From: a virus
Taxonomy: Duplodnaviria > Heunggongvirae > Uroviricota > Caudoviricetes
DNA: 21,533 nt
IMG/VR virus record: IMGVR_UViG_2713897073_000007
Strand: one strand, 5' to 3'
Below the pieces are notes generated by a model. The model made no database searches and was not told the DNA's origin. It saw only the letters and a program-made list of their open reading frames with translations. The position numbers and the translations under genes were made by a program. Shown piece after piece: positions 1,232 through 21,533 of this stretch; positions within the stretch are counted from its first letter, which is position 1, and every line of letters starts with the position of its first letter.

Positions 1232-1245
1232 TCTGTGATTGTGGC

Positions 1246-2156: not shown

Positions 2157-2160
2157 TTTG

Positions 2161-2660: not shown

Positions 2661-2670
2661 CGCGGTTTCC

Positions 2671-2941: not shown

Positions 2942-3001
2942 CAGCCGAAAGGCACCCGCACGTAATCTATCGCTTTTTTGTTACTCCGGCAATTCTGCCT
3001 G

Positions 3002-3262: not shown

Positions 3263-3304
3263 AGCGACCTCCCTTAACGTGGTGCTGCCGCTATTCTAAG
3301 TTGC

Positions 3305-4414: not shown

Positions 4415-4571
4415 CTGCTCCCTCCCTGTGCGGCATGGTCGCATGTGCGTGCGGAGGGGGTTACTGCTTTTTGTTGTCGCCGTGGCGAGAGAACGGCGCA
4501 GGGGTGAGATTACGCGCGTGGTGGGTGATGATTGTTGCCGAATCATTTAACGGATACAAGGGGCTGAAGCT

Positions 4572-5756
4572 ATGAGTGAAACTCGTTTTCATGGTGCCCG
4601 TGTTACGGAAAATACCGACCTGGTAACAGCGATTAACGATGTTGATTCCAGCGTTATCGGTATCGTGGCAACGGCGGATGATGCGGACGCGAAGCTGTTC
4701 CCGCTGAACAAGCCCACACTGCTGACCCGCGTCAATGACGTGCTGGGAAAATGCGGGACAACGGGGACGCTTTATCGTGCGCTTAAGGCCATCGCAGACC
4801 AGGTGAGTACAAAGGTGATCGTCGTTCGCGTGGCTGAACACAAAGAAGAAGACGGAAAAACGCAGGATCAACTGGTTATCGGTGGTTCTGAATCTGACGG
4901 CAGCTATACGGGGATGTATGCGCTGCTTGTTGCAGAGCAGGATGAAAGCATCGGATACCGTCCGCGTATTCTGGCCGCGCCGGAGCTGGACACGGAGGCG
5001 GTAACAAAATCCCTGTGCGTGATTGCGGGTAAACTGCGCGCGTTTGTGTATGCCTCATGTCACGGCTGTAACACGATGGCTGAGGCGATTACCTACCGCC
5101 AGAAATTCAACGAACGTGAGGTGATGCTCTTATGGCCGGACTTCATCGCCTACAACCCGAAAAGTGGCAAAAACGAAACGTTCCCCGCGCCTGCCTATGC
5201 GTGCGGCCTTCGTGCGTACATTGACCATGAGCAGGGTTGGCACAAATCGCTGTCCAACGTTCCGGTTAAAAATGTGCTGGGGATGTCCAGGCATGTGTTC
5301 TGGTCGTTGCAGGCCGAAGACAGTGATGCCAACAGCCTCAACAACAAAGAAATCACGACCATTATTCGTCGCAACGGGTTCCGCTTCTGGGGCAACCGCA
5401 CACCGGAAACGAACGCCTACATCTTTGAGGTGTATACCCGAACCGCACAGGTGCTGGCTGATTCAATTGCGGAAGCGCAGTTTGAAACCATCGATAGTCC
5501 ACTGACGCCTGCGAACGTGAAGGATGTTATCAGTGCCATCAGGGCAAAACTGGATTCACTGGTGACTGCCGGGAAACTGATTGGGGCGTCGTGCTGGTAT
5601 GACGTGGTGGATAACAGCACCACGAATTTACGTCAGGGGCGTGTGCGTATTCGCTACAAATATACGCCCGTTCCTCCGCTGGAAGACATGGAGCTTTACC
5701 AGTCGTTTACTGATGAATTCTTTGGTCCCGCATTTGCGGTGCTGGGAGGTGCCTGA
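4572..5756 (+). CDS. FI: Contractile tail sheath protein (P2 gpFI family)
   Basis: 394 aa; N-terminal region ...ADDADAKLFPLNKPTLLT... aligns with recalled P2 FI (...ASDADAETFPLNKPVLIT...); SD AAGGGG upstream; followed immediately by the tube gene. Confidence 0.9.
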   Translation: MSETRFHGARVTENTDLVTAINDVDSSVIGIVATADDADAKLFPLNKPTLLTRVNDVLGKCGTTGTLYRALKAIADQVSTKVIVVRVAEHKEEDGKTQDQLVIGGSESDGSYTGMYALLVAEQDESIGYRPRILAAPELDTEAVTKSLCVIAGKLRAFVYASCHGCNTMAEAITYRQKFNEREVMLLWPDFIAYNPKSGKNETFPAPAYACGLRAYIDHEQGWHKSLSNVPVKNVLGMSRHVFWSLQAEDSDANSLNNKEITTIIRRNGFRFWGNRTPETNAYIFEVYTRTAQVLADSIAEAQFETIDSPLTPANVKDVISAIRAKLDSLVTAGKLIGASCWYDVVDNSTTNLRQGRVRIRYKYTPVPPLEDMELYQSFTDEFFGPAFAVLGGA

Positions 5757-6268
5757 TGGCTGTACCAAAACATCTTCGCTTTTTTACGCTGTTTGTGGAT
5801 GGTGAAAACGAAGTGGGTAAGGTGACGTCCGTCACCCTGCCTAAACTGACGCGCAAAACCGACAGCTACCGGGGTGGTGGCATGATGGGTGCGGTAAGTA
5901 TTGATCTCGGTCTGGACGACTCCGCGCTTGATGCGAGCTTTGTCATGGGGGGCGCAGTTCGTGAGCTGTTCCTTAAGTATGGCGGCACGATTGACGGCAC
6001 GCTACTGCGTTTTGCGGGTGAATACTACACCGATGCAGAAAGCGACCTGTATGAAGTCGAAATGCGCGGACGCGTGACGGAAATTGATATGGGGGAAGCC
6101 AAACAGGGCGAAGCCACATCACACACTTACGCCATTAAAAACACCTACTACAAGCTGAGTGTTAACGATCGTCCGTTGTGGGAGATTGACCTGCTGAACT
6201 TCATTTACCGGAAGGACGGCAAGGACATTGTGCCCGATCGCATCCGTTCCGCGCTTGGGCTTGGCTGA
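5756..6268 (+). CDS. FII: Tail tube protein (P2 gpFII family)
   Basis: 170 aa; start overlaps the FI stop (TGATG); position and size match FII; N-terminal pattern ...FVDGENEVGKVTSVTLPKLTRKTDSYRGGGM resembles recalled P2 FII. Confidence 0.85.
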   Translation: MAVPKHLRFFTLFVDGENEVGKVTSVTLPKLTRKTDSYRGGGMMGAVSIDLGLDDSALDASFVMGGAVRELFLKYGGTIDGTLLRFAGEYYTDAESDLYEVEMRGRVTEIDMGEAKQGEATSHTYAIKNTYYKLSVNDRPLWEIDLLNFIYRKDGKDIVPDRIRSALGLG

Positions 6269-6322
6269 TAAGTAATATGCAGGCGGCGCAGTGCGTCGCC
6301 TCTGACTGAAAGGAGTTTCCTG

Positions 6323-6688
6323 ATGAAAGAGACGAAAAACATCGATACCGAAAACACGGTAGTTGCTGACACTGTGAAAGAAACCAGTGAGCGTGGCGTA
6401 AAACTTACCCAACCAATTGAGCGAGGCGGCGAAAAAATCACGTATGTGGAGATCACCGGGGCTATTGAGCAGGCTGGATCTCTGCGAGATTTGTCGCTGT
6501 CTGATGTGCTGAATCTGAAAGCGGAATCCATGTTTACGCTGCTGTCACGAGTGACATCACCGCGACTGGATGAAGTGACGATCAAAAAAATGGCATCCCG
6601 TGACTTTATTCAGTTATGTGTGGTTGCCGTAAATTTTTTGAGCGGTGCGGACTCTGGCGGGAAGAACGAACAGGCGACGGAAGCCTGA
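6323..6688 (+). CDS. E: Tail assembly chaperone gpE (zero-frame product)
   Basis: 121-aa ORF between the tube and tape-measure genes; contains the T TTT TTG slippery heptamer in frame; synteny with P2 E. Confidence 0.8.
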   Translation: MKETKNIDTENTVVADTVKETSERGVKLTQPIERGGEKITYVEITGAIEQAGSLRDLSLSDVLNLKAESMFTLLSRVTSPRLDEVTIKKMASRDFIQLCVVAVNFLSGADSGGKNEQATEA

Positions 6689-6852
6689 TCACGGTTGTGT
6701 GCTTTGAGCACATAGAAGACTTTGTGGCAGATATTGCCGTTATTTTTAACTGGTCGCCCGCCGAAATCTTCATGATGACGCCCGGCGAAGTGGTTAGCTG
6801 GCGTGAGCGGGCGGCACTTCGCAGCGGGAATGCAGACAATGAAGACTCTTGA
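6323..6852 (+). CDS. E': gpE+E' fusion product made by programmed -1 ribosomal frameshift at 6634-6640
   Basis: ORF-track frame 6616..6852 is -1 relative to E and is closed by a TGA at 6601-6603, so it can only be entered by slippage downstream of that point. The heptamer T TTT TTG at 6634-6640 is in the correct zero-frame register. The E' frame ends by overlapping the tape-measure start. Confidence 0.7.
6634..6640 (+). other. Slippery heptamer T TTT TTG (programmed -1 frameshift site for E/E')
   Basis: Read directly; E-frame codons AAT TTT TTG (N F L), -1 frame codons TTT TTT GAG (F F E), matching both ORF-track translations (VNFLSGADS and KFFERCGLW). Confidence 0.7.
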
Positions 6853-9646
6853 TATCCGGGTCGCTTTCAGCGCCGTTGACAGGCTGACCCAGCCTGCCGA
6901 AAACGCCCGCCGCCTGATGGGGCAGTTTGGTGACTCCATCCAGCGAACGCAGGGGGCGATCAAAAATCTCGAGCGTCAGGCGCGTTCATTTGAGCGCGCC
7001 CGCGACGCTGTCAGTAAAGCGGATGCGGGTATCGTGAAAGCACGACGCCAGCTTAACGCCCTTAATCAGTTACAACGCACGGGTACAGTGCTCAGCGAAA
7101 AACAACAAAAGCTGATGCAGCAGTTAAGCACCCGGCTTGAACGCCTGAATGAATCGCGCACGCGGGAAATTCAGAAAATGCGGGAGCTTGGCGGAGAGCT
7201 GAAACGCCACGGCATTTCCCTGACAGGCAGCGATAACACCATCCAGCAGGCCATCAGACGCACCGAACAGTACAACAATCAGCTTGAACGCGAACGGCAG
7301 GCGCTTGCGCGTGTAACGCGGGCGCGTGAGCGGTATTCGCGCGCGCAGGAAACAGCGGGAAAACTGAAAACAGGTGGTGCACTGGCAATTGGTGCGGCAG
7401 CGGCGGGCGGCTATGCTGCCGGGCGTTTTTTGCAGCCTGCGATCGGGTTCGGGAAAGAGATGTCCCGCGTTCAGGCACTGACGCGAATCGACCAGAACAG
7501 CCCGCAGTTTAAGGCGCTGCGTGAGCAGGCGTTAAAACTTGGCTCTGAAACGCAGTTCACCGCAGGCGATGCCGCCAGTGGGCAGGCATTTCTGGCAATG
7601 GCTGGCTTCACACCGCAGGCCATTCAGGCTGCGCTTCCCGGCGTGCTGAGCATGGCAACGGCTGGCGGTATGGACCTTGGCGAGACGGCAGATATTGGCT
7701 CAAATATCCTGACGCAGTTCGGCCTCTCCGCTGACCAGATGGACCGGGTCGGTGACACGCTTACAGCAGTGTTTACCCGTACTAACACTGACCTTCGCGC
7801 ACTGGGCGAAACCATGAAATATGCAGGTCCGGTGGCGGGTAAGCTGGGAATATCGCTGGAGCAGGCCGCAGCGATGGCGGGCGTGCTGGCGAATATGGGT
7901 ATCAGAGGGAGTGATGCCGGGACGGCAATGCGTGCCAGCCTGGCTCGTCTGGCATCACCGCCAAAGGCGGCAGCAGAAGCGCTGAAAGAGCTGGGTGTGT
8001 CCGTCTCTGATGCGAACGGCAAAATGCGCCCGATGGAAGATGTGCTGGCCGACCTTTATAAAGCCACCCGTAAATACGGGGAAGTTGACCGGGTATCGTT
8101 CTTTAAGGACATTGCCGGGGAAGAGGCTTTCACGTCGTTTATGGCTCTCGTTGATGCGGCGGGTGACGGCTCCCTGCCCAAACTGAGAAAAGAACTTGAG
8201 GGCGCACGCGGTGAGGCTGAACGCACGGCAAAGGTTATGGCCAATAACCTTGATGGCGACCTGAAATCACTCGGCAGTGCATGGGAAGGGCTGCGTATCC
8301 GCATTGCAGATCTGATTGATGGTCCGCTGCGTTCTGTCACGCAGTGGCTCACGCGGGTGGTCTCAAAGGTGACGGCGCTGGCACAGGCCCATCCGGTACT
8401 GACGCGCCAGTTACTGATAGCAGGCGGTGCGCTGCTGGCAATGACTGCAACGGTTGGCTCGTTGTCGCTGGTTATTGGAGTGCTTCACGGGAAGCTGGCC
8501 ACGTTGCGTCTTGGTTTTTCTCTCCTGACCGGATCAATGAATGCTGTCAGGCTCCTGCCAGCACTATGGGGAATGGTGACGGGTTCCGTTTCGTTACTGG
8601 GGGGCGCTATCGGGGCGCTGTTCAGCCCGGTCGGATTGATTGCTGCTGCGTTTGTGGCTGCGGCAGTTCTCATCTGGAAATACTGGGAACCCATCAAGGC
8701 GTTTTATGCCGGGGTGTTCAGCGGGATTATGGAGCGGCTGGCCCCGTTACGCGAAACCTTTGAACGGTTTGGTCCTGTTTTTGACGCAATCGGAAGCGGG
8801 ATAAGTCAGGTGTTTAACTGGTTTAAATCGTTGCTGTCACCGATGGAGTCCAGCAAGGAAACGCTGGATAAATGTACCAGTGCTGGCGAGATATTCGGTA
8901 ACGTTCTTGGCGGTGCGTTACAGCTTGTTCTGACGCCCGCAAAAATGTTGCTGGATACGCTGGCGTGGATACTTGAAAAACTCGGTGTGCTTCCGGATGA
9001 AGCGGAAAGGGCGAGAAAGAAAATCGAAGACGCACAGCGTGCGGCCATTCTTCAGGACAAGGTTGCTCTGTTTCAGGGAGACATTGCGAAAATCAATCCG
9101 CCGAAGTCTGCGGAAAATGGCAATGGCACCGGAGGTGATAAACCCAAAGACAATAAACCGCTCACAGACAGCAATACCGGTACGCTACGCAGACTCAGCA
9201 AAATTGCTGATAACACAGGTAAGCTGGTTGATGAGACGAAAAAACGTATTGGCCCCGGCGATATTGTCTTTAAGAACCTGCCCCGCGCACTTGCCGTTCG
9301 TGGGGAGTGGCAGGAGCGGAAGATTGTGCAGGTCAGTAAGCCTGCCCCCGCAATTAATATCACACCCGTGGTCCCGGCTCCGCTGCCTCCGGCGCTGGTC
9401 CCTGTTGTTGCGGCCAGCTCCCGCCCGGTGGCGGAGGCCATACGATCTCCAGTGGCATCAGTTCCTGTAACTTCCCGTAACCGGGAGCCTGTTGCCTCCG
9501 GATTTGGTGGTGAAATTCATGTTCATCTGCATAACGTTGTTACGCAGAATCCCCGCGAACTGGCGAAACTGGTCGGTGAAATGGTCAGGGCAGAAATGGA
9601 ACGGCGCGCCCGTGCCGGGCGTGGCAGTTTTTACGATAAAGATTGA
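6803..9646 (+). CDS. T: Tail tape measure protein (P2 gpT family)
   Basis: 947-aa ORF; long N-terminal coiled-coil-like region, central hydrophobic segments (LLIAGGALLAMTATVGSLSLVIGVL...), Pro/Ala-rich C-terminus; located between E/E' and U. True start may be the in-frame ATG at 6830 or 6839, overlapping the E' stop. Confidence 0.9.
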   Translation: MSGRHFAAGMQTMKTLDIRVAFSAVDRLTQPAENARRLMGQFGDSIQRTQGAIKNLERQARSFERARDAVSKADAGIVKARRQLNALNQLQRTGTVLSEKQQKLMQQLSTRLERLNESRTREIQKMRELGGELKRHGISLTGSDNTIQQAIRRTEQYNNQLERERQALARVTRARERYSRAQETAGKLKTGGALAIGAAAAGGYAAGRFLQPAIGFGKEMSRVQALTRIDQNSPQFKALREQALKLGSETQFTAGDAASGQAFLAMAGFTPQAIQAALPGVLSMATAGGMDLGETADIGSNILTQFGLSADQMDRVGDTLTAVFTRTNTDLRALGETMKYAGPVAGKLGISLEQAAAMAGVLANMGIRGSDAGTAMRASLARLASPPKAAAEALKELGVSVSDANGKMRPMEDVLADLYKATRKYGEVDRVSFFKDIAGEEAFTSFMALVDAAGDGSLPKLRKELEGARGEAERTAKVMANNLDGDLKSLGSAWEGLRIRIADLIDGPLRSVTQWLTRVVSKVTALAQAHPVLTRQLLIAGGALLAMTATVGSLSLVIGVLHGKLATLRLGFSLLTGSMNAVRLLPALWGMVTGSVSLLGGAIGALFSPVGLIAAAFVAAAVLIWKYWEPIKAFYAGVFSGIMERLAPLRETFERFGPVFDAIGSGISQVFNWFKSLLSPMESSKETLDKCTSAGEIFGNVLGGALQLVLTPAKMLLDTLAWILEKLGVLPDEAERARKKIEDAQRAAILQDKVALFQGDIAKINPPKSAENGNGTGGDKPKDNKPLTDSNTGTLRRLSKIADNTGKLVDETKKRIGPGDIVFKNLPRALAVRGEWQERKIVQVSKPAPAINITPVVPAPLPPALVPVVAASSRPVAEAIRSPVASVPVTSRNREPVASGFGGEIHVHLHNVVTQNPRELAKLVGEMVRAEMERRARAGRGSFYDKD

Positions 9647-9652
9647 GGAGTC

Positions 9653-10147
9653 ATGGCCATGATGATGATCTACGGCATGTTTGTTTTTGAGCTGCGCACG
9701 CTGCCGCATCAGCAGTTACAGCAAAACAAAAGCTGGCGGCATGTGAAAAATGAACGCGTTAACCGTTCAGCAAGCTGGCAGTATATCGGTGCAGGTGATG
9801 ATCGCATCGTTCTTTCTGGTGTGCTTTATCCTGAAATTACAGGTGGCGAAGTGTCGCTGTCGCTGCTGACCACGCAGGCGTATACAGGACGACCCTGGCC
9901 TTTGATTGATGGCGTCGGGCAGATTTACGGCATGTATGTCCTGACCGGAACGAACACGACCCGTTCCGAGTTTGATCGCTACGGTAAGGCGAAAAAGATA
10001 GAATTTTCACTGACCCTTGAACGCTGTGATGAGGATTTGCGGGAGCGCCTGCAATCCTCATCGTTCAGCGATATGCTGTCCGGCTTCAAAGATAAAGTGA
10101 CATCATCCCTTAACAGCGCGGCCAGTTCAGTTAAAGGGCTGTTCTGA
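9653..10147 (+). CDS. U: Tail protein gpU
   Basis: 164 aa directly after T; N-terminal FVFELRTLPHQQLQQNKSWRH and LSGVLYPEITGG resemble recalled P2 U. Confidence 0.8.
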   Translation: MAMMMIYGMFVFELRTLPHQQLQQNKSWRHVKNERVNRSASWQYIGAGDDRIVLSGVLYPEITGGEVSLSLLTTQAYTGRPWPLIDGVGQIYGMYVLTGTNTTRSEFDRYGKAKKIEFSLTLERCDEDLRERLQSSSFSDMLSGFKDKVTSSLNSAASSVKGLF

Positions 10148-10159
10148 TTTAATGCTGGC

Positions 10160-10191
10160 CACTCATACCTGGTAATAAGTGGCCAGTCTTA
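10160..10191. repeat. 9-bp inverted repeat CTGGCCACT - 14 nt - AGTGGCCAG immediately 3' of U, at the transition from GC-normal phage DNA to AT-rich cargo
   Basis: Read from sequence; could be a terminator for the late tail operon or a remnant of a recombination site. Confidence 0.3.
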
Positions 10192-10309
10192 ACACTCACC
10201 ATTTGATTGCACCCGCGTTAACGATTTGTTACTGGGTATCAGACATGCTGGATAGCCAGTAGAAACATACCATTAAAATTATTACAATAATTGGTCACAT
10301 GATTATCTT

Positions 10310-10795
10310 ATGCTGAATAATAGAGATATGAATATTAATGAACTTAAAGACTGTATTCACTATGAAGTAATCGGTAGCGAGCGTCCTTTCTCCTGGCGAA
10401 AGGCAATTGTTCGCGCAATAAAACATAGAAGACTTCGTTATTTATTTTGGTGGCGCATAGCCAAATACCTTTTTGATAAAGGCGGATACTGCCGGAAGAT
10501 TGCGGGGAAAATAGAACGTTTCATTCTTGATAAATATAATGTAACAGTCCCTTTAACTGTAAATATAGGGAAAGGCTTTGATATTTCTTATCTCAACAGT
10601 GTTGTTATCGGTCACAAAGTAACAATCGGTGAAAATTGTTCAATAAAACCGGGGGTAACTATTGGGCTACGTGGTGATTTTAATGATATGGATATTGTTA
10701 TAGGACATAATGTGACCATTGGTTGTAATGCCACCATTCTTGGTGGCAAAGTGCGTATAGGAAACAATGTCACAATAGGTGCTCATGCATTGGTA
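10310..10795 (+). pseudogene. 3'-truncated hexapeptide-repeat (left-handed beta-helix) acyltransferase, AT-rich cargo gene
   Basis: Tandem hexapeptide repeats VTIGENCSIKPGVTIG / IVIGHNVTIGCNATILGGKVRIGNNVTIGAHALV; the last 23 aa of the ORF (TTTFKNFKESLTITSFFRIVAVK) are the reverse-strand reading of the tail-fibre fragment, so the gene is cut at about 10795. Confidence 0.6.
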
Positions 10796-11290
10796 ACCAC
10801 CACCTTCAAGAACTTCAAGGAGTCCCTGACCATAACTTCCTTCTTCCGGATAGTTGCGGTCAAATGAAGCGATTGAGCCACTACTGTTTCGCCATAAACC
10901 AAGATGCTCTGCGCCTCCGAGCGTGTTCAGGTCAATGGTTGTGCTCAGGGGGCGTGTTGCAGACTGAACCTGACGCCAGTAACTCCACGGACCGTCTGAA
11001 CCATTCCATGTGCCAGAAAGGTTGCGCATATAAACATTGCCTGTTCTGGTGGTGTAACGCTGCATTCCTGCAAAATTACCGCCATTGAATACCTCCAGTA
11101 CACCGACTGCACCGTCTTCAGGGAAATTTTTAGCAGCCGTCGCGTTAGTGGATGTAGCTTTAGACCAGACGCCAAGATAAGCCTTAACGGGACCAAATGT
11201 ATTCAAGTCAGCATCAAGCGGCATTTCGCCATTGTTTTTCATAAACGTCAGGCTGGTAACGCCAACATTGTCCAGAAAAGCGCCCTTATC
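10796..11290 (-). pseudogene. Internal fragment of a phage tail fibre gene (gpH-like), truncated at both ends
   Basis: ORF-track ORF 10667..11242 with its frame open upstream to about 11290. Gly/Asn/Thr/Ser-rich fibre-like sequence (GVLEVFNGGNFAGMQRYTTRTGNVYMRNLSGTWNGSDGPWSYW...GQGLLEVLEGGGY). The final 40 aa are an antisense read of the acyltransferase DNA. Family assignment is by composition and synteny only. Confidence 0.45.
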
Positions 11291-11835
11291 TCCACGCGTT
11301 GCACACCGTGCACATGCAGTGCGGCAGCAATGGCGGACAACGCCACGTCCTGACCGATAAGCCCCTGCTCAGCCAGCCACTTCCTGAACGACGATTCAGC
11401 CGCAGCCAGAATAGGTTCGGATTCCGGGCCGGGATAAAAGTACAGTTTTGCATTCAGCCGCCATGTCACGATTCTGGCGCTCTGTACGGTCAGGCGGTCG
11501 GCCACCGGGCGGGTATCCTCTGCATTCAGAACGGCACGAACGGTATTAAGCAACGCCTCCGTTGCTGTGCCGTCGCCTTCAGTGGACAGGATGGAAACCG
11601 TCACACAGGCCGGAGACGGGCTGATGGCCCGCGCATCACGCACCAGACCGCTGGCGCTGCGTGCAAAATACTCGTATGCACCTGACGGGCCAGCAACACT
11701 CAGGCCGTCGTACGCCCGCTGCGCCCGCAGTCTCAGCGAGGTGTCGCTCTCCATCACCGCGTCGGTGGTATCCGTTGCCGGAGTGATAACCAGGCGCTTT
11801 GTGTTCATATTGCCCGCGAGGTTGTCCAGGTCTGT
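11248..11835 (-). pseudogene. J: Baseplate protein gpJ fragment lacking the N-terminal third and probably the C-terminal end
   Basis: ORF 11248..11886; the segment TKRLVITPATDTTDAVMESDTSLRLRAQRAYDGLSVAGPSGAYEY...SPSPACVTVSILS...RPVADRLTVQSA...YFYPGPESEPI...LHVHGVQRVEI matches recalled P2 J residues from about 100 to 270. The first 17 codons of the ORF are an out-of-frame read of capsid-gene DNA. Confidence 0.65.
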
Positions 11836-12463
11836 CATCCAGCAGGGATGAGCGCGCGTCCTGTACCAGTGCATCAGCGTTCGCATACTTACCCGCGTGC
11901 GCCACTGTGTTGTCCATGTTGCGGGAAGTCAGCGTCACGTCATTCATTACGCGTTCACTGGCATCGGTTCTGATGTGCTCCAGCCAGCCCACGTTAACGT
12001 CCTGAAGCAGCTTGTTGGTGCTGAAATTGGATTTTTCCGCGTGTGATGTGCCGTTAAAGCCGATCATGATGCGGTCAAGCGCCACCTGCCGGGCAATCTG
12101 TGTGCTGATGCGCGACTGAAAATCGCTGTGAGCCGCCCAGGCATCAAGCTTCGGGTATGAAATAAACGTGTCGTAGTTCACCTGTTCACACTGGTACTGA
12201 CGAGCCTTCATATCGACAGCGTTAATCGGATTACGGCGATCTGTGCCGTCATAACTGGTATTCGTGCGCGCAATCGGCCCGGTGGTGTCCAGGAGAACTT
12301 TTTCGCCTTTCTGGTCAGTTACACCGATTACATTAATTCTTTTCGTAAATTCGGTACTTTCCTTTGAAGCGTTTTCAAAACGCTGTTGTACCGATGGATT
12401 GACGGTAAATCGCGATACCAGCGCAGAAACCGGGATATTGTTAAGCGACGCCTGCTGCGTCAT
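11836..12463 (-). pseudogene. N: Major capsid protein gpN fragment (N-terminal about 210 aa)
   Basis: ORF 11636..12463; FTVNPSVQQ...RINVIGVTDQKGEKV...YQCEQVNYDTFISYPKLDAWA...IMIGFNG...LLQDVNVGWLEHIR...ADALVQDA matches recalled P2 N N-terminal region. Homology stops near 11836, after which the frame reads J-fragment DNA. Confidence 0.65.
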
Positions 12464-12508
12464 GTAGCAGCCCAGCTTGTTACGGGCATTAATTACTCAG
12501 GGGGAGCA

Positions 12509-13765
12509 ATGATTCAGGACGCTTTTGTGCGCCAGCGTGCGCGGCAACTTTACTGGCAGGGTTATCCGCCCGCAGAAATATCACGTCTGATGGGAATAAA
12601 CCCGAACACGATTTATGCGTGGAAAAAACGCGACCAGTGGGATGAAACGCCCCCCGTGCAGCGTGTCACGCAGTCCATCGATGCGCGCCTCATCCAGCTT
12701 ACTGAAAAACAGAATAAAACAGGCGGTGACTTTAAGGAAATAGACCTGCTGACCCGGCAGCTTAAAAAGCTGCATGATGGCCAGCCGGATGTGATGGCCG
12801 CAGGAAAGAAAGGCCGGGCGAAAAAACTTAAAAATCATTTCACGCCGGAACAGATTGCCGCACTGCGGGAAAAAATCATCAGCAGGCTGGAGTGGCATCA
12901 GCGGGGCTGGTTTGACTCCCTGACACTTTGCAGGGAAGCCGGGATACGTAACAGGATGATCCTGAAATCCCGACAGATTGGGGCGACCTGGTATTTTGCA
13001 CAGGAAGCTCTGCTGATGGCGCTGCGTGACGATGTGGCGCAACCTTACCAGCGTAACCAGATTTTTTTGTCTGCGTCGCGTCGTCAGGCGTTCCAGTTTA
13101 AAAGCATTATTCAGAAGGTCGCGGCTGAAGTTGATGTGGAGCTGAAAGGGGGCGATAAAATCATCCTCTCCAACGGCGCAGAGCTGCATTTTCTCGGCAC
13201 TTCTGCTGCGTCGGCACAGTCCTATACGGGCAATTTTTATTTTGATGAATTTTTCTGGGTCAGTCGCTTTGCTGAACTGCGCAAGGTGGCTGGCGCTATG
13301 GCAACCCTCAGCGGACTGCGGCGCACCTACTTCTCCACGCCATCCACCGAAACGCACGAGGCGTACGCCTACTGGAACGGCGACCGCTGGAACGAGAAAA
13401 AGGCCTCGCATAAACGCCAGCGTTTTTCTGTGGACTGGAAAACGCTGCATAACGGGCTTATCTGCCCTGACCGGACTTGGCGGCAAATTGTCACGCTGGA
13501 AGATGTGGTTAATCACGGCTGGAAACACACCGATATCGACGAAATTCGTGATGAAAACACCGAAGACGAGTTCCTCAATCTCTATATGTGTGAGTTTGTC
13601 CGCGAAGGGGAATCGGCATTTAACCTGAATATCCTGATTGGCTGCGGTGTTGACGGATACGACGACTGGAAAGACTGGAAACCTTTTGCTCCCCGCCCGA
13701 TGGGGAATCGTCCGGTATGGATTGGGTATGACGCAAACGGCAGCAGTGGCAACGGCGACACCGTG
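12509..13765 (+). pseudogene. P: Terminase ATPase (large) subunit, P2 gpP family, 3'-truncated
   Basis: ORF 12386..13840; preferred start MIQDAF at 12509 with SD GGGGGAG; Walker-A-like KSRQIGATWYFAQEA; the last roughly 25 aa (RMPYQRRPSRFSFLRTAAKNELTR) are an antisense read of the gpA fragment. Family size is about 590 aa, so roughly 170 C-terminal residues are missing. Confidence 0.7.
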
Positions 13766-15042
13766 CGGATGCCATACCAGCGCAGGCCGTCGCGGTTCAG
13801 TTTCTTGCGGACCGCCGCAAAAAACGAGTTAACCAGGTAATCGCTGGAGTCGCGCATAGTGGCCCCGTTCCATTTGGGATTCGGATGACCGTTCTCCGTT
13901 GTTGCGTGGTATTTTGACGGGCAGGTGACAGTCAGAAACACCGCTCTGTCGCCACGGGCTTCGGCCAGAAGTTCCAGCCCCTTCATGGTGGCCATCATTT
14001 CTGCCTTACGGTGAACCGGGTTACTTACTCCCGCGTAATACACTGTCTCAAGATCAATCGTGAACCCGTCTTCGTTTTCCAGCATGAAACTTTTCAGGAA
14101 ATCGCGTGTTTTCTCGCGCTGTGCGCGAAACTCGCTTAACGCATCCTGGCTCAGATAGGGCGATGTTTTTCTGGAAACCAGACAGGCGGCGCGGAGTTGT
14201 TCTTCTCTCCACTCGCAACGTAACAGCCACAGTTTGCGTTTCCACCATTCCGCACAGGTCAGGCGAAGGATTGCGCCCGGCAGCAGCTCCGTGTCTGGTT
14301 CGTTCCTCCGGCCTTTGTCTGTTGTCAGTGCGTCATAATGCGGAGGCATGGCGTGCAGGTGTAACGCCATGCGGGCCAGCATCTGATACGCCTTCAGCGT
14401 TACATCCATGGTCAGCTCGCCATCAGTCGCACCAAAGCCATCGCAGAGTTTTTCGAAGGTGCTGCTGAACATCGCCGCCGTCATGGTGGCCAGCGTCTGT
14501 ATCTGGTGTTTGTTGAGCTGCGGCAGGTAAAGCAAATCGTCCAGGCGTTCGCGTCCGGCAAGGGAGCGATAACCCGGTGTCAGCCAGTGTCCGTCAGTGC
14601 GATCCAGACGTTCGAATATTTTGCGCAGGGTTCCGCGTGCATAGCGTTCTGCCTGCCAGCTCTTTTTGCCTTTCCGGCGATCGACTTCCTGTTTTTTGCG
14701 CAGGAAGGAGAGGTGGCGAATAAGCGGATCGCGCAGATAGGACGGCAGCAGGCGCAGCGAGGCCATGGCTTCATCCACCGCGCCGCGTGCCTGTCTTCTG
14801 GCGTCTCCTGCCAGCGTGATGGTTTTGTCCTGTTTTTCCTGTGCGTCCAGGCTTTTATTAATCAGGTTGCCCAGTGGCGTGGCAGAGAACGCCGCATCAG
14901 CCTTTTCCTGTCGGCGCTCGTTCTCTGCCTGGTAGGCATCCAGCCAGGAGGAAAGCGCGGATTCAGGTGCGGGGATCCCCGTTCCTTCACGCCCCACTGC
15001 GTGGCGCGGTTGTTGCCAGTCCCTGATGTACTCTGTCGTCAT
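13759..15042 (-). pseudogene. A: Replication initiation protein gpA family (rolling-circle initiator), 3'-truncated after about 428 aa
   Basis: ORF 13582..15042 directly downstream of the early operon; sequence up to ...GLRWYGIRTV is protein-like, the following 58 aa are Pro/Ser-rich antisense of terminase DNA. P2 A is about 760 aa. Convergent with the P fragment. Confidence 0.65.
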
Positions 15043-15048: not shown

Positions 15049-15414
15049 TTACTGCGTCATACCGTTCAGGGTGTCACGGCAAACGGCAGCCAGCCGCTGA
15101 ATTTCCAGCACGGTGTCTTCTGTGTCGGCATAGCGATGTGTGATGCGGATGCTGTCGGCAATCACATCGACGATTGCAGAGGATGGGCGCTGGTAAATGC
15201 CAATAACGGACGGAGTGCCACCTTCAATGCGGTAAAGCCTGTAATTTCCCTCGTGGCTGTCAATCATGTAGCGACCATCAATAACAATCTTTCCGTCAGC
15301 GAGCTGCGGTACAGGCAGGGATTTCAGGTACATGTCATAACGTTCACGCACGCGAACGGCAAGATCACGCTCTGTGTTGAGCAGGTATTCAAGAAAGTCG
15401 TTGGCGAGAATCAT
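15049..15414 (-). CDS. Hypothetical early-operon protein (121 aa), immediately upstream of the A fragment
   Basis: ORF-track ORF; position corresponds to the orf83-like slot before gene A in P2-family early operons; no recognisable motif. Confidence 0.5.
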   Translation of the reverse strand: MILANDFLEYLLNTERDLAVRVRERYDMYLKSLPVPQLADGKIVIDGRYMIDSHEGNYRLYRIEGGTPSVIGIYQRPSSAIVDVIADSIRITHRYADTEDTVLEIQRLAAVCRDTLNGMTQ

Positions 15415-15486
15415 TGCGGCAATCCTCTTGTTACAGATGTGCGAAGGCCTCCTGCCGCAAGGTGCAGGAAAGGCCCGGAACAGGAA

Positions 15487-15717
15487 TTAATGGAGTTTGT
15501 TTTGCTGCTGGATGAGCTGCTGAAGCTCGCGCAGATCATCCGCCAGATAACTGAAAACAGCGGATGAGTAGAGGTTTGAAAGTTCGCAGCTACGCTCATG
15601 CAGCATATTGATGTGCATGATTTTAGCGACGCGGAATGCGCGGGAAAGTCTGCGGTTGATTTCAGTCTGGATGTGACGACGCTCCGCGATAGCGCGGTGC
15701 TGTTTGCGGTTTGCCAT
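15487..15717 (-). CDS. Hypothetical small basic protein (76 aa)
   Basis: ORF-track ORF; Arg/Lys-rich N-terminus (MANRKQHRAIAERRHIQTEINRRLSRAFR) suggests nucleic-acid binding; function unassigned. Confidence 0.4.
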   Translation of the reverse strand: MANRKQHRAIAERRHIQTEINRRLSRAFRVAKIMHINMLHERSCELSNLYSSAVFSYLADDLRELQQLIQQQNKLH

Positions 15718-15896
15718 GGTGTGGCCTCTTTGGTTGTAAGTTTTGAAAACTCACCATCCAGAGCTGCGAAACTGTGGGTGGCGAGACGTACGGGGTTCGC
15801 AGTACCGGCAACCAAAGAACCCGGCCCGACCGAAGTCGGCCCCGTACGCCCCGCCATAATTCTGACGCGAAAAAAACGTGGCAATACAGTACGCAC

Positions 15897-15917
15897 AAAA
15901 AAACCGCTGGCGCGGTT
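15897..15917 (-). terminator. Hairpin ACCGC-NNNN-GCGGT followed by a T7 run on the minus strand
   Basis: Read from sequence (plus strand shows A7 then ACCGCTGGCGCGGTT); lies in the 367-bp non-coding gap between the SPFH module and the 76-aa gene. Confidence 0.4.
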
Positions 15918-16053
15918 GTGCGCTTTGGTTGTCAGCAGGCTGCGAAACCCGGCACCCGTTTTATGAGGTGCAGCGAAAATGTAACCTGACTGATTGCGGC
16001 ATGGCAAGCGGTTTTTTTGTGAGAACGGCATACTAAAAAATCCTGATACTGCT

Positions 16054-16078
16054 CCGGCCAGCGGTTTGCACTGGCCGG
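16054..16078 (-). terminator. 8-bp inverted repeat CCGGCCAG - 9 nt - CTGGCCGG starting 7 nt after the SPFH lipoprotein stop
   Basis: Read from sequence; a T6 run follows on the minus strand only after a 13-nt spacer, so intrinsic-terminator function is uncertain. Confidence 0.35.
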
Positions 16079-16084
16079 GTGTCA

Positions 16085-16915
16085 TTACTTCACGGGAACG
16101 AACGGAACAGCGGTGTTACTGGTCATGTATTGCGGCAGCGTGCCGTTCCATTTGTTGATTGCTTCCAGCTCCATAACGCCGGGATTCTGGCGCAGAGCTT
16201 CGCCGCGTAAACGAATGGCGTCGGCTTCAGCCTGGGCTTTTGTGCGAATGGCATCGGCCTGTCCGGCAGCTTCTGCGCGCAACATGTTGGCTTCTGCTTC
16301 GCGTTGCTTGACTTCCTGTTCGCGTTGCAGGGTTTTCTGGTTTGCCGTGACTTTGGCGTTAATGCTGTCGATAACGGTTGGCGGATATTCCGGTTTACCG
16401 ACATAAGAGAGGCTCATGACCTGAATACCGATGGGGGTCATCTCTTCCTGAATATCTTTAAGTGCTGAATCCAGCAGTTCAGACTTACCACCGTCGATAA
16501 ACTTATCGGTGGTCATTTTGCTGGCCAGTCGGTTGAGTGCATCGGCGATCTTCTGGCGCAGGTCAGTGTCGGTAATGTCGTCCACGCCTTTGCGGTAGGT
16601 CTGAAACACCGTGGTAACTTTGGATGGATCAACTTTGTAGGCCACGCCGATGTGATAGCCGATGGTTGTGCCGTCACTCATCTGGAAGTTGAACGGCTCA
16701 TCGTAACTCTTCATTTGTTTGAAGGTCGGGAAGATGTAAACCTCTGTATTCCAGCCTGTCCAGTAGCGGCCAACGCCAACCACTTCACCGACGCCTTTGT
16801 CGTCGCCCAGTTTGTTGACTTTGATGCCCACATTACCTGGCTCAACGCGATCGCAACCAACCAGCAGGATGGCGGCAAAAAGCGGGAGAATCTGAAAGAG
16901 TCTGAATTTCTTCAT
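16085..16915 (-). CDS. SPFH/band-7 (stomatin-prohibitin-like) domain lipoprotein
   Basis: 276 aa; signal peptide with lipobox (LLVGC); central band-7-like region; C-terminal Ala/Glu/Gln-rich coiled coil (QREQEVKQREAEANMLRAEAAGQADAIRTKAQAEADAIRLRGEALRQN). Start overlaps the upstream gene stop (ATGA). Confidence 0.75.
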   Translation of the reverse strand: MKKFRLFQILPLFAAILLVGCDRVEPGNVGIKVNKLGDDKGVGEVVGVGRYWTGWNTEVYIFPTFKQMKSYDEPFNFQMSDGTTIGYHIGVAYKVDPSKVTTVFQTYRKGVDDITDTDLRQKIADALNRLASKMTTDKFIDGGKSELLDSALKDIQEEMTPIGIQVMSLSYVGKPEYPPTVIDSINAKVTANQKTLQREQEVKQREAEANMLRAEAAGQADAIRTKAQAEADAIRLRGEALRQNPGVMELEAINKWNGTLPQYMTSNTAVPFVPVK

Positions 16916-17115
16916 TGTTTGATTTCCTTGATGTACTTACTGAAAAGGCGAACAACGCCTGCCGGGTACAGCATGGCAATGAAAATTCCCAGCAATACCA
17001 GGAAGGAGCTGTCTGATGAAATCATTCGGGGGAGTAGTCCTGCATACAGAATGAGAGAGACGAGGACGCATACCAGCGCCCACATGTATGCGCGAAACCA
17101 GGTCTTTTTGTTCAT
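16912..17115 (-). CDS. Small membrane protein (67 aa, two predicted transmembrane helices), translationally coupled to the SPFH lipoprotein
   Basis: Hydrophobic segments WALVCVLVSLILYAGLL and FLVLLGIFIAMLYPAGVV; 4-nt overlap with the downstream start. Confidence 0.6.
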   Translation of the reverse strand: MNKKTWFRAYMWALVCVLVSLILYAGLLPRMISSDSSFLVLLGIFIAMLYPAGVVRLFSKYIKEIKQ

Positions 17116-17126
17116 ATCGCGGTCCT

Positions 17127-17426
17127 TTACTGGTTAAGGAAAAAATCGAAAACGTTGTCGATGCGTTGCAGCGGCTCCTGCTGCATTGCTTCCGGCGTTT
17201 CTGATTCACCTGGTGACTCCAGCGTCGCGCAAAAATCCTTGATTTCATGATGGAGCGTCAGACGAATGGCAGGAGCCATGGTTCTGGCGTGCTCCAGCTC
17301 ATCCAGCAGTGCCAGCACGGCAGATGGCGAGAGCATTGCGCGAAACGCCAGTAATTTTTGATGCGTTGCCATTCGTTGCAGGTCAGTCGCCAGTTCGCGT
17401 AATTCCTGGTGGTTGATGGCGCTCAT
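17127..17426 (-). CDS. Hypothetical early-operon protein (99 aa, acidic C-terminus)
   Basis: ORF-track ORF; ATGA overlap with the upstream gene; no recognisable motif. Confidence 0.5.
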   Translation of the reverse strand: MSAINHQELRELATDLQRMATHQKLLAFRAMLSPSAVLALLDELEHARTMAPAIRLTLHHEIKDFCATLESPGESETPEAMQQEPLQRIDNVFDFFLNQ

Positions 17427-17689
17427 GCTCTGGCTTCCTTCAGTAGCAGGTTAAACATGTGAGTAAGTGGATTGCTACACCCGAACGGCATCGGGTTTAC
17501 GTGGTAAGAAGCCTGGCCTCCTGCTTTGCGAGCGCGACCACCTGTGCTGCGGTTTGTTCTGATGACTAAGCCGCCGCGCCAGAGTCGGCGTAACTCAGCA
17601 TTGATGGCTGTGGTTGGGGTATTCAGTGCTGCGGCGATTTCTCCGCCGCTACAACCCGGATGGGTAGCGATGTAGTCCAGAATGGTCAT
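17423..17689 (-). CDS. Small winged-helix-like DNA-binding protein (88 aa)
   Basis: MTILDYIATHPGCSGGEIAAALNTPTTAINAELRRLWRGGLVIR resembles a helix-turn-helix/wing pattern; coupled overlaps on both sides. Confidence 0.5.
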   Translation of the reverse strand: MTILDYIATHPGCSGGEIAAALNTPTTAINAELRRLWRGGLVIRTNRSTGGRARKAGGQASYHVNPMPFGCSNPLTHMFNLLLKEARA

Positions 17690-17889
17690 CTGCGTGACTC
17701 CTGTACCTGTCGGATAAGGTTCACCCGCACCACATTCGTGGCGCAGAAGTAAGTGCCGTCAGTGAGATAGATGTGATGTGCATCCTTTTCCGAACGATGT
17801 TTGTCGATAGTGGTAATCAGTCGTTCGTCGACCTCGTATTCGCGGTCTCTGGAGGTGAAGCGAACGACAGGAAAATGCTTAATTGCCAT
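17686..17889 (-). CDS. Hypothetical early-operon protein (67 aa)
   Basis: ORF-track ORF; overlaps neighbouring genes by 1-4 nt. Confidence 0.45.
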   Translation of the reverse strand: MAIKHFPVVRFTSRDREYEVDERLITTIDKHRSEKDAHHIYLTDGTYFCATNVVRVNLIRQVQESRR

Positions 17890-18206
17890 TACACCCTCTT
17901 GGCTTTATGTCTGTATTTGAGCTTTTCTATTTCTTCTTTTTGTTCTTTTAATGTTCTTATGGCTGTGAAAACATTAAAGCCCATAAAATGTGCTCTGTTC
18001 GCTAATGTAATACTGGCACCTTTGTTAGCTATATCATCTTCAATATCAGTGAAATACTGACTGATTTCTTTTAGTGCGGCGCAAAGCTTTGCGAGATCTC
18101 GCCCCCTGTCAAAATATGCATCCTTCAGTATTTTTTGATTTGTCCTGAGCATGCTAACCTCGTGTTTATATATATGGATACCTCCGCGAGTGCGGATTGT
18201 TTTCAT
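17889..18206 (-). CDS. Hypothetical protein (105 aa) encoded in an AT-rich insert within the early operon
   Basis: ORF-track ORF; local base composition is markedly more AT-rich than the flanking phage genes; charged, Lys/Glu-rich C-terminus. Confidence 0.5.
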   Translation of the reverse strand: MKTIRTRGGIHIYKHEVSMLRTNQKILKDAYFDRGRDLAKLCAALKEISQYFTDIEDDIANKGASITLANRAHFMGFNVFTAIRTLKEQKEEIEKLKYRHKAKRV

Positions 18207-18241
18207 GTTTTCTTATTTAATCGTGTGTTTTATTTGTGCTG

Positions 18242-18355
18242 TTATTCTTCAGTGAAAAAACGCTCAATCTTTTTTACTGAATGAATAATTCGCATAATCC
18301 CAATAGCGCAGGCCACCGAAATAATCAGAACAAGCCATGAGATAAATATACTCAT
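18242..18355 (-). CDS. Small hydrophobic peptide (37 aa, MSIFISWLVLIISVACAIGIMRIIHSVKKIERFFTEE), not in the ORF track
   Basis: Hand translation; ATG overlaps the stop of the upstream 81-aa gene in an ATGA arrangement; one predicted transmembrane helix followed by a basic/acidic tail; AT-rich. Confidence 0.4.
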   Translation of the reverse strand: MSIFISWLVLIISVACAIGIMRIIHSVKKIERFFTEE

Positions 18356-18597
18356 GCGATATTCCCCAGCTTATACGGTTCAATATGTTCCCCGCATTCT
18401 GCGGCACAGATCAGCTCGGAAAGTTCGTTAAGTGCATCCAGATCATCAGCGTAAAAAGCCACGTCATACAGACTTCGGATTGCTCTGGTCAATGAGTCAC
18501 GGGCCGCACGTTCAGCATGAGCGCCTGATGCACTTAAGCGAAAATAAAAACGCTCAAGTGCTTTGTTAATGAGAGTTTTATATTCTTTGCCCATCAC
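18352..18597 (-). CDS. Hypothetical early-operon protein (81 aa)
   Basis: ORF-track ORF; no recognisable motif. Confidence 0.5.
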   Translation of the reverse strand: MMGKEYKTLINKALERFYFRLSASGAHAERAARDSLTRAIRSLYDVAFYADDLDALNELSELICAAECGEHIEPYKLGNIA

Positions 18598-18605
18598 AAC
18601 GCCCT

Positions 18606-18893
18606 TTAATCTGCTTTCTGTATTTCAGCTTCTGAATCCATACAAATAATTTCGATATAGGGTTCATCGCCATTAACCTGGCGTGCCTTTTCAGCTTCGC
18701 TAATGATTTCTCGTACGGTCTGGTACGGAAGTTCCACAAGCAGCCGTGTGCCGTTCAGATAAATGTAAGTGGCTTCGGCGGCTCCGTTTTTACCCGCCGG
18801 AGTCACTCCATCAATAGCGGATGCGCGTAATAACAGTTCACCGCGAAAATCAATAAAACGGATAAATACACCTTGTGCATGCTCTTTGGTCAT
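18606..18893 (-). CDS. Hypothetical early-operon protein (about 95 aa)
   Basis: ORF-track ORF 18606..19007; preferred start at the Met of MTKEHAQGVF, which avoids overlap with the upstream gene. Confidence 0.5.
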   Translation of the reverse strand: MTKEHAQGVFIRFIDFRGELLLRASAIDGVTPAGKNGAAEATYIYLNGTRLLVELPYQTVREIISEAEKARQVNGDEPYIEIICMDSEAEIQKAD

Positions 18894-18903
18894 AAAGCAC
18901 CTG

Positions 18904-19245
18904 TTATAAATCAGCCTGTTTAATAAAACTTTGCCCGCGAAGCAGACGATCAACCGTGCGAAGTGCTTCGTATAATGTGAAATCCTGCCCGAACTGATTG
19001 TCGCCACTGCTTAGAGCAAAAATGCGGTTTCCGGTAAACGGATTGCGTGGGCATTTGTGGATCACGATTCCAGCTTTCTCAATCAGCCAGGCATGCTCGC
19101 CGATTTGTTTTACTGGGTAGCCATCCGGCGTTGCGTGTGTATCACTCAGGCTGTAGCGGATGTTGCTGCGTGATGCACTGGTAGCAAAACGGTTAGCGTG
19201 GCGTTCTGCACCATTGCGAAAGCGTGAATTACGTTGCTGTTTCAT
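18904..19245 (-). CDS. Hypothetical early-operon protein (113 aa)
   Basis: ORF-track ORF; basic N-terminus; function unassigned. Confidence 0.5.
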   Translation of the reverse strand: MKQQRNSRFRNGAERHANRFATSASRSNIRYSLSDTHATPDGYPVKQIGEHAWLIEKAGIVIHKCPRNPFTGNRIFALSSGDNQFGQDFTLYEALRTVDRLLRGQSFIKQADL

Positions 19246-19404
19246 GTTAAAGACTCTGTACAGATTTAATTATTCCGGCATAGAGGCCGAACTCAAAATA
19301 TTTGCGATTAAATCGTATCGCATTGTTTTCACGTTTTGCGGACTGCTGGTTCATTTTCGTTTGCCTCCGCACATGAGAATTGCGCCGCTTAAGAGGTAAC
19401 CGAA

Positions 19405-19429
19405 GTTAATTGATAGTATTACAATTAAC
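19405..19429. promoter_or_regulatory. Perfect palindrome GTTAATTG - 9 nt - CAATTAAC in the 250-bp gap inside the early operon (candidate operator or protein-binding site)
   Basis: Read from sequence; AT-rich; about 160 nt upstream of the 113-aa gene start on the minus strand. Confidence 0.35.
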
Positions 19430-19497
19430 ATAAGGTCCAATTTGTCCATGCCACACATAATTACCCTCATTGCAGTAGTTGTGGGTTGTCAGGTTTC

Positions 19498-19704
19498 TCA
19501 CCCGATAAACCAGATAACAAACGCTATAAACATCGCCCCAATAGCTGCCGGGAAAAGTCCTTTGGTATAAGCGGCGATATATTCAATGCTGAGTTCAATA
19601 AAGCGTTCTTCATGTCCCGTTAACTTGCGAAACAAATAGATCTCTATTACGCCTATCTCAATAAAAACAAGGGTCAGAATGGCGCTGATGATATGGCTGG
19701 TCAT
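19498..19704 (-). CDS. Small membrane protein (68 aa, two predicted transmembrane helices), second gene of the early operon
   Basis: Hydrophobic segments IISAILTLVFIEIGVIEIYLF and FPAAIGAMFIAFVIWFIG; starts 6 nt after the cox stop. Confidence 0.55.
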   Translation of the reverse strand: MTSHIISAILTLVFIEIGVIEIYLFRKLTGHEERFIELSIEYIAAYTKGLFPAAIGAMFIAFVIWFIG

Positions 19705-19710
19705 TTATGA

Positions 19711-19998
19711 CTAAAGTCCCAGCCACAACAACCATGCGTCGCGGCGTTCTTTCGGTTGCTCAAAAAACGCTTTGCGCATGCCTTCGTTAAATGCTGGCAG
19801 ATATACCCAGTTTTCTGATGCACGCGTCTTCACTGAACCTGGTTTCACAAAGTCAATCGTTGGTAACTTTGCAGCGTCAATCATGGTTCTGACGGTTGAT
19901 TCTTTGCGACCAATCATCTTGGCAAATAGTTGATATGGCACCGCTTCAAGTGGATATGGTGCTACCTGAATGAACCCCTCAAGCTCTGATTCGCTCAT
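19711..19998 (-). CDS. cox: Cox-family excisionase / early-promoter repressor
   Basis: ...WVYLPAFNEGMRKAFFEQPKERRDAWLLWLGL matches recalled P2 Cox (...YWVYLPAWNNGLKLAYESRPKEIRDGWLMWLGL); divergent from the C repressor gene; SD GGGAGA 8 nt upstream. Confidence 0.85.
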   Translation of the reverse strand: MSESELEGFIQVAPYPLEAVPYQLFAKMIGRKESTVRTMIDAAKLPTIDFVKPGSVKTRASENWVYLPAFNEGMRKAFFEQPKERRDAWLLWLGL

Positions 19999-20528: not shown

Positions 20529-21533
20529 ATGTCGATTAAGAAGCTCGAAGATGGTCGTTATTTGCTGGACATCAGGCCGAACGGACGCAAGGGAAAGCGC
20601 GTGCGTAAGGTATTTGACAAAAAATCGGTAGCGGTGGCCACTGAACGCTACATCATGGCGAACGCTGAAAAGCGGGAATATATACAGGGCTACCGTGATC
20701 GTCGAACGCTAAATGATTTGCTTGAGTTGTGGTGGATGTATCACGGCCAGCACAGGCGTAAGGCGGAAGAAGACCGAAAACAACTGCGCAACATAATCAA
20801 TGAGCTTGGCGCTGATATGCAGGCTGTGGATCTTGATAAGCTGAAAATTATCGCGTGGCGTTCTCAAAAGATAGCTGAAGGATTGAAACCGTCATCTGCT
20901 AACAGGTACATGAATCGGTTATCCGGAATGTTTACCGTGCTGAAAAAAATAGGTCTTTGGGATGCAGAACATCCAGTAAGGGGAATTTCTATTCTTTATG
21001 TATCTCCACGAGAAATGGCGTTCCTGTCACAGAAGGAAGTGGCGCTATTGCTCGATACACTGGAGGGCGACTACTGGCGTGTTGCGCTTTTGTGTTTAAG
21101 CACAGGGGCGCGCTGGAGTGAAGCTTGTAAGCTTCGTGGTGAACAGATAGTTCATAACCGTGTAACGTTTCTTGAAACCAAAAATGGCCGGAAGAGAACA
21201 GTGCCAATTTCGCAGGCAGTTTGTGAGGCGATCAAAACCAGAGAAACAGGCGGCTTGTTTGAGGTGAAGTACCGGGAATTCTGCCTGGCGCTGAAAAGAG
21301 TTAAGCCCGATTTACCAAAAGGCCAGGCTGCACATGTGCTGCGGCATACGTTCGCCAGCCATTTTGTGATGAACGGAGGAAACATTATTGCGCTTCAGAA
21401 GATTCTTGGTCACGCAACCATTCAGCAAACAATGGCATATGCGCATTTTGCACCGGATTACCTGCAGGATGCGGTGGCCCTTAATCCGCTGAAAGGTGGC
21501 GTAAGTGTCCACGCAGTGTCCACGGGGGATTAA
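20529..21533 (+). CDS. int: Tyrosine recombinase, P2-type integrase
   Basis: ORF-track ORF 20514..21533; MSIKKLEDGRYLLDIRPNGRKGKRVRK N-terminus, LSTGARWSEA, HVLRHTFASHF...GGNIIALQKILGH...MAYAHFAPDYLQDAVALNPL catalytic-domain motifs match recalled P2 Int. Preferred start at 20529 (GGAGGG 7 nt upstream). The stop coincides with the window end, so the att site lies outside the window. Confidence 0.9.
   Translation: MSIKKLEDGRYLLDIRPNGRKGKRVRKVFDKKSVAVATERYIMANAEKREYIQGYRDRRTLNDLLELWWMYHGQHRRKAEEDRKQLRNIINELGADMQAVDLDKLKIIAWRSQKIAEGLKPSSANRYMNRLSGMFTVLKKIGLWDAEHPVRGISILYVSPREMAFLSQKEVALLLDTLEGDYWRVALLCLSTGARWSEACKLRGEQIVHNRVTFLETKNGRKRTVPISQAVCEAIKTRETGGLFEVKYREFCLALKRVKPDLPKGQAAHVLRHTFASHFVMNGGNIIALQKILGHATIQQTMAYAHFAPDYLQDAVALNPLKGGVSVHAVSTGD

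Follow-up and report, generated by a model that had tools for sequence, protein, structure and literature searches.

A joint of terminase gene P with replication gene A, very probably left by a short-homology deletion, in a defective P2-like prophage of Escherichia coli

The prophage remnant between flk and pdxB

The window, that is, the whole stretch of 21,533 nucleotides that was analysed (IMG/VR record IMGVR_UViG_2713897073_000007), is a defective P2-like (Peduoviridae) prophage lying between flk and pdxB of ETEC-type E. coli. Its nucleotide identity to the Peduoviridae phages P88 and vB_EcoM-569R5 is 96-98%, and in the phage records the terminase gene half (P) and the replication gene half (A) that adjoin in the window match separately, several kb apart. 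As a reference we used the prophage of E. coli FDAARGOS_1077 (NZ_CP068155, 3,731.6-3,767.9 kb; L012 below), which occupies the same flk-pdxB site and shares the flanking cargo. Over all aligned parts the two are 99.97% identical, with 5 SNPs in 21.5 kb and five clean gaps, and the remnant measures ~20 kb against ~36 kb for the reference prophage. Unlike the window, the reference has G, H, I, J, W, V, S, R, the lysis genes, X, L, M, N and O, as well as full P, Q, a DUF3800 gene, parR, parM and most of A. It falls short of a perfect ancestor because ~440 nt are missing from within its own A, close to the 3' end (L012 31026-31070); this A is annotated as a pseudogene, and the reference may be replication-defective too. 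The features of the window are as follows.

2599-10147: retained left arm, with hok/gef, ogr and D on the minus strand, then the tail sheath, tube, E/E', tape-measure and U genes on the plus strand
10793-10795: deletion joint D1, GTA overlap, 2,167 bp; removes the 3' end of the acetyltransferase gene, G and the 3' part of H
11286-11291: deletion joint D2, TTATCT overlap, 1,278 bp; removes the 5' part of H, I and the 3' part of J
11286-11836, minus strand: J', a baseplate gene fragment
11835-11836: deletion joint D3, TC overlap, 5,557 bp; removes the 5' part of J, W, V, S, R, the lysis genes, X, L, M and the 3' part of N
11835-12491, minus strand: N', 657 nt of the major capsid gene with both ends missing
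12490-12491: deletion joint D4, TA overlap, 1,017 bp; removes 20 nt from the start of N, the whole of O and the O-P intergenic region
12509-13760, plus strand: P', the 5' 1,252 nt (codons 1-417) of the terminase gene, 100% identical to L012 25147-26398
13759-13760: deletion joint D5 between P' and A', a 2-bp CA common to both flanks, placed by base-by-base extension
13759-15042, minus strand: A', the 5' 1,284 nt (codons 1-428) of the replication endonuclease gene
15049-19998, minus strand: retained early operon upstream of A', back to cox (19711-19998), named from the annotation of identical sequence in 99-3165 and FDAARGOS_1077
20529-21533, plus strand: integrase gene, adjoining pdxB in the source chromosome

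The two genes that meet at D5 could be assigned to known families. The intact form of P combines Terminase_5, Terminase_6N and Terminase_6C domains, as a gpP-type terminase does, and is divergent from the O-N capsid genes. A' is a gpA-type endonuclease gene matching Phage_GPA (E = 3.5e-93) in an early operon with cox, C and int; the full-length A allele is 31% identical to P2 A over 688 aa. The remnant is without Q, O, M, L, X, the lysis genes, R, S, V, W, I and G, and in it P, A, N, J and H are truncated, while int and cox look intact, which would leave excision alone possible.

Several further observations concern the retained parts. Between flk and ogr (1246-2941) lie genes for a TagO-like (type VI secretion-associated) protein, a small hypothetical protein, a zinc-ribbon protein and a hok/gef toxin, which belong to the inserted DNA since the flk-pdxB site is empty in L1_E925. 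A serine/colanic-acid-type acetyltransferase cargo gene (10310-10795, plus strand) stands between U and the tail-fibre genes, its 3' end being cut by D1; its position is occupied by an invertase in related phages, and the gene itself is interrupted by IS1 in L1_E925. Within the early operon, a gene for a 276-aa SPFH-domain protein (16085-16915, minus strand) and a membrane-like ORF of 67 aa (together 16085-17115) are missing at the corresponding place in leuZ-type prophages, described below, and in phage vB_EcoM-569R5, and are therefore probably cargo. In the D region (3305-4546, minus strand), RefSeq annotates only an 801-nt D and a 93-nt pseudogene where the window has a 413-codon ORF, and the spacing from D to the sheath gene equals that of an intact prophage with a 1,110-nt D. 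The short D annotation may reflect a start-codon call rather than a truncation. Both a truncation of D and an inversion of the plus-strand FI-U tail block were considered and rejected, as layout and spacing are the same in an intact prophage of this type.

The P-A joint and the content of the gap

Base-by-base extension against the FDAARGOS_1077 prophage placed the end of P homology at 13760 (P nt 1252 of 1752; L012 26398) and the start of A homology at 13759 (A nt 1284; L012 32124), with CA being the sole sequence common to the P site and the A site. The P 35-mer running up to the joint at nt 1252 ends ...GGCAACGGCGACA. P and A sequence abut directly with no filler (0 nt), the flanks beside D5 are 100% identical to the reference, and the gap relative to FDAARGOS_1077 is a single contiguous stretch of 5,727 bp. 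A 9-bp microhomology suggested by a BLAST match of P reaching 13767 turned out to be a gapped over-extension, the base-by-base comparison giving 2 bp. An earlier, sequence-only reading had described the site as a convergent head-on fusion of the 5' parts of P and A and had advised aligning both fragments with full-length homologues. That alignment, against FDAARGOS_1077, bears out the fusion, locating both breakpoints and finding both genes cut, and it moves the break from the proposed 13760-13765, which was right within a few bases, to 13759/13760. Full-length P or A homologues naturally ending here, which would speak against a fusion, were met with in none of about 1,100 records.

As also foreseen, past the joint each reading frame runs antisense to the other gene, for 26 codons in P' and 58 codons in A'. 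The P' ORF spans 12386-13840 on the plus strand, with its ATG at 12509 and a stop at 13838-13840 that is reached through antisense A; 417 P codons are followed by 26 aa (...GNGD, then TVRMPYQRRPSRFSFLRTAAKNELTR and the stop). The A' ORF runs from 15042 to 13582 on the minus strand and consists of 428 A codons and a 58-aa tail, the stretch from the joint to 13582 being antisense P.

Intact P encodes 583 aa, of which codons 418-583 are missing from P'. Pfam searches showed that P' retains the Terminase_5 and Terminase_6N ATPase domains, and that the Terminase_6C nuclease domain, at residues 405-566 of the intact protein, is absent. Upstream of the P ATG, 19 nt are left after D4. In P2, the late promoters of P and O are annotated between these two genes, together with the activator site, and by that annotation P' would have no late promoter after D4.

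In this phage group, intact A encodes 940 aa, and A' covers positions 1-246 of the 321 in the Phage_GPA profile. The last A-encoded residues of A' are ...RWYGIRTV, after which the intact allele continues with EPHHDGTVHWH, the HUH motif. Downstream of the break, the segment SYIATYIGKN of intact A aligns with GYIAKYISKN of P2 A (residues 449-458), which we take to hold the catalytic tyrosines 450 and 454. A' is thus without the HUH motif and without the YxxxY tyrosines that align with P2 A 450/454. Moreover, in P2 the nick at ori is made at A nt 1859, farther downstream than the point equivalent to the A' break, and by analogy with P2 the ori was probably lost along with the 3' part of A.

By the reference annotation, the gap contains the 3' part of P (nt 1253-1752), Q, a DUF3800 gene, parR-like and parM-like genes and the 3' part of A (nt 1285 to the end). 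The portal gene Q is entirely missing, as are about 600 bp of intergenic DNA after Q, at the position of P2 cos. The sequence-only reading had listed the 3' part of A, Q, the 3' part of P, cos and a region equivalent to the P2 tin/old cargo hotspot as lost. The annotation confirms the losses from A, Q and P; a cargo gene is indeed gone, but it is DUF3800 and not tin/old, and the parR- and parM-like partition genes were absent from that list. For cos, P2 synteny agrees with the claim. The P2 cos 19-mer itself, searched for with up to 4 mismatches, was found neither in the window nor in related prophages; from the P2 gene order, in which cos lies beside Q, cos would fall within the deleted stretch.

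With A' lacking HUH motif and tyrosines, P' lacking Terminase_6C and Q gone, the earlier claim that the element is unable to replicate or package holds. The four further deletions of the window, which take away scaffold, small-terminase, lysis and baseplate genes and the greater part of the capsid gene, would each alone block particle production. Judged from its sequence, the ~20-kb remnant is inert and would make neither DNA copies nor particles.

Distribution of the joint and a second prophage broken at the same base

A 2.9-kb query across the joint found matches in 1,413 E. coli records, end-to-end cover being reached in just 18. Nine of these 18 covering genomes, all complete ETEC genomes, match in one 100% piece and have the window-type joint, which also occurs in one metagenome contig (L157) and one IMG/VR contig (L153) and is common to ETEC lineage-2 type genomes. 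In the RefSeq records of the nine genomes, both genes are marked 'incomplete; missing C-terminus', as truncated pseudogenes. The truncation of both genes is thus already in public annotation, and it is ordinary deletional decay of a P2-like prophage. P nt ~1052-1452 is present in 1,109 E. coli records; 1,094 of them run continuously through the break site, and a partial best match across it was seen in just 15, which equals the 18 known genomes minus 3 that also carry an intact copy. The D3 joint, which fuses J' to N', was found in 0 of 5,426 complete E. coli genomes. Genome 99-3165 has a different, smaller deletion in the L/M/N region (L001 13564-13566), and the right ends of the two deletions are 28 nt apart (window 11835-11862). 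Neither derives from the other because the window keeps 26-28 nt of N that are missing from 99-3165.

In a sister ETEC lineage, nine genomes of the lineage-1 type, L1_E925 and FORC_031 among them, also have P broken at the identical nt 1252 with the same CA overlap. Here the partner of P is parM, at codon 15, and A has its full length; the joint lies at L004 26716 (L1_E925), L013 21271 (FORC_031) and L149 6335, corresponding to window 13760. The lineage-1 remnant adjoins tRNA-Leu (leuZ), and its integrase and immunity region differ from those of the window. Its A allele is 94.8% identical to that of the window, the mismatches beginning 44 nt from the joint. The flk-pdxB site is empty in L1_E925-type lineage-1 genomes, and the leuZ site is empty in the window-type strain L2_E1649.

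In strain B2C the leuZ prophage retains parM, Q and the 3' part of P, and in everything else it matches the lineage-1 remnants at 100% identity. It follows that the parM-type joint arose in situ, when a B2C-like prophage lost 4,061 bp. On the same kind of sequence comparison, the window joint would be an in-situ 5,727-bp deletion of a FDAARGOS_1077-like prophage, and the two joints would be two events in the same P sequence. The leuZ prophages (E925, FORC_031, B2C) resemble the window in their late module, which in B2C is that of the flk-pdxB prophage, and differ from it in integrase, immunity region, A allele, site and set of further deletions. An identical block ending exactly at the joint had been considered and was given up, as the B2C module continues through the 3' part of P and Q to ~370 nt past Q. 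Homology-facilitated illegitimate recombination, a lost IS and a cointegrate with an excised circle were dropped after the same comparison.

The late module is of interest in its own right. A comparison of window 3881-13760 with L004 and L159 gave zero SNPs in the module, from D to ~370 nt past Q. This identity points to a very recent homologous exchange of the late module, ~22 kb in its intact length, between P2-like phages.

Origin of the joint and relation to known systems

The joint was very probably made by a short-homology illegitimate deletion of the P2-like prophage at flk-pdxB, in one event that joined P to A. The flanks are collinear with the reference, the two sides overlap by CA, and the joint holds no foreign DNA. 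We assign it to short-homology illegitimate recombination because P and A abut directly over a 2-bp overlap, without an IS or an att- or invertase-like core, and because ten similar joints exist. Indeed, all 11 distinct deletions that we mapped across this remnant family have overlaps of 2-6 bp. In such a process, illegitimate recombination independent of extended homology would have joined P nt 1252 to A nt 1284 through the CA overlap and excised the 5,727 bp between the convergent P and A. Two pseudogenes would have resulted, P' without nuclease and promoter and A' without HUH motif, tyrosines and, by analogy with P2, ori; with four similar deletions this would have left the ~20-kb inert remnant. 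The gap was presumably produced in a single step, by replication slippage or end joining. The 'one deletion' of the sequence-only reading accordingly stands as far as the one contiguous gap is concerned, while a single event is the most economical reading and a two-step route is its alternative.

Other routes to the joint were weighed against this one. An assembly chimera, or P and A genes that are naturally short, hardly needs to be entertained: the identical joint is present in nine finished genomes from several laboratories and in two independent contigs, nearly all records read through the P site, and the break falls inside the domain profiles. A mobile element or a site-specific recombinase, acting by IS-adjacent deletion, by Int at a pseudo-att site or by a tail-fibre invertase, is very improbable. 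IS1 is active in these genomes, with one copy in the E925 acetyltransferase gene, and related prophages carry an invertase; but no IS element, terminal repeat or target duplication is present at the D5 joint, no att-like or AT-rich invertase-like core was found at the partner sites, and the window's remnant has no invertase gene. IS-mediated adjacent deletions retain the IS at the joint, whereas here P and A abut, and the 11 deletions show random overlaps with no common site. In a two-step origin, P nt 1252 would first have been joined to parM codon 15, and a second deletion would then have run from that old joint to A nt 1284. Both joint types do share their P nucleotide and their CA overlap, and these phages show no variation over the 113 nt that follow the parM-type joint on its right; given also the identical late module, homologous recombination could have carried this joint from one prophage to the other. 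However, the second deletion would need the old joint as its precise starting point, which repeats the coincidence, and the parM-type joint is a simple in-situ deletion at a different site, tRNA-Leu. The divergence between the leuZ and window A alleles, setting in close to the joint, also argues against this route; no genome has a parM-type joint at flk-pdxB, and no intermediate was observed. We regard the two-step origin as improbable.

Short-homology deletion leaves the question of why the same nucleotide was used in two prophages. Chance, the two-step history and a local hotspot are the candidate answers. P nt 1252 could be a breakage or pausing hotspot, at which a local feature or a site-specific cut gave rise to independent deletions; we consider this a tentative explanation, rather doubtful on balance. 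In its favour, nt 1252 was used twice, in independent in-situ deletions, and in a simulation with uniform endpoints over ~19 kb, a match by chance among about 11 deletions had a frequency of just 0.008 for an exact shared same-side endpoint and 0.04 for endpoints within 2 nt. A 5-bp hairpin (ACAGC/GCTGT) overlaps nt 1252, and both partner sites, of the parM-type and of the A-type joint, end in TCCA. On the other hand, shuffled versions of the hairpin region fold at least as well (z = +0.7 to +1.0), and 0.01-0.04 is not negligible once all endpoint pairs are compared. Moreover, a third joint type at nt 1252 was seen neither among the 5,426 E. coli genomes nor in metagenomes or IMG/VR. Long patterns run against the latter two returned only the two known joint types, and a 16-nt pattern run on genome contigs gave only chance matches in unrelated taxa. 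The canonical Chi sequence GCTGGTGG does not occur at the site, where near-Chi octamers were inspected by eye. Were the hotspot real, deletions would start repeatedly at P nt 1252 with variable distal partners, explaining the same base in two prophages.

From these results, the ~20-kb island is to be taken as an inert remnant and not as an inducible phage. Its joints are exact lineage markers, the P-A joint for ETEC lineage-2 type genomes and the J'-N' joint for the window's source, in which alone it has so far been seen. Five deletions against about five SNPs amount to unusually fast deletional decay in this remnant family, which could serve as a natural data set for rates of prophage decay and for the spectrum of deletion endpoints. 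The mildly unusual points are only the pace of decay and the twice-used P breakpoint.

Short-homology illegitimate recombination in E. coli proceeds by replication slippage or alternative end joining, and the window deletions resemble its products in their 2-6 bp microhomologies, the lack of filler and the independence from mobile elements. P2-derived tailocins, as far as the description available in PMC9205054 extends, are P2-like remnants that keep tail sheath, tube and tape measure without head and replication genes, and on that description the window shares with them both the kept sheath, tube and tape-measure genes and the lost head and replication genes. Unlike in tailocins, the baseplate genes (V, W, I and most of J), most of the tail-fibre gene H, its assembly gene G and all lysis genes are deleted from the window. 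No functional tailocin of the R type is possible because baseplate, fibre and lysis genes are gone.

Cryptic P2-like prophages of E. coli form by deletional decay, the P2 remnant of K-12 being an example. The window is like them in its Peduoviridae gene set and order, in internal deletions of essential genes and in keeping ogr, D and tail genes, int and cargo. It differs from the K-12 remnant in belonging to another phage lineage, P88/Xuanwuvirus-like with a 940-aa A and parMR-like genes, and in its site at flk-pdxB. In addition, its decay is very recent, with about 5 SNPs against 5 deletions over 21.5 kb in comparison with a near-complete copy.
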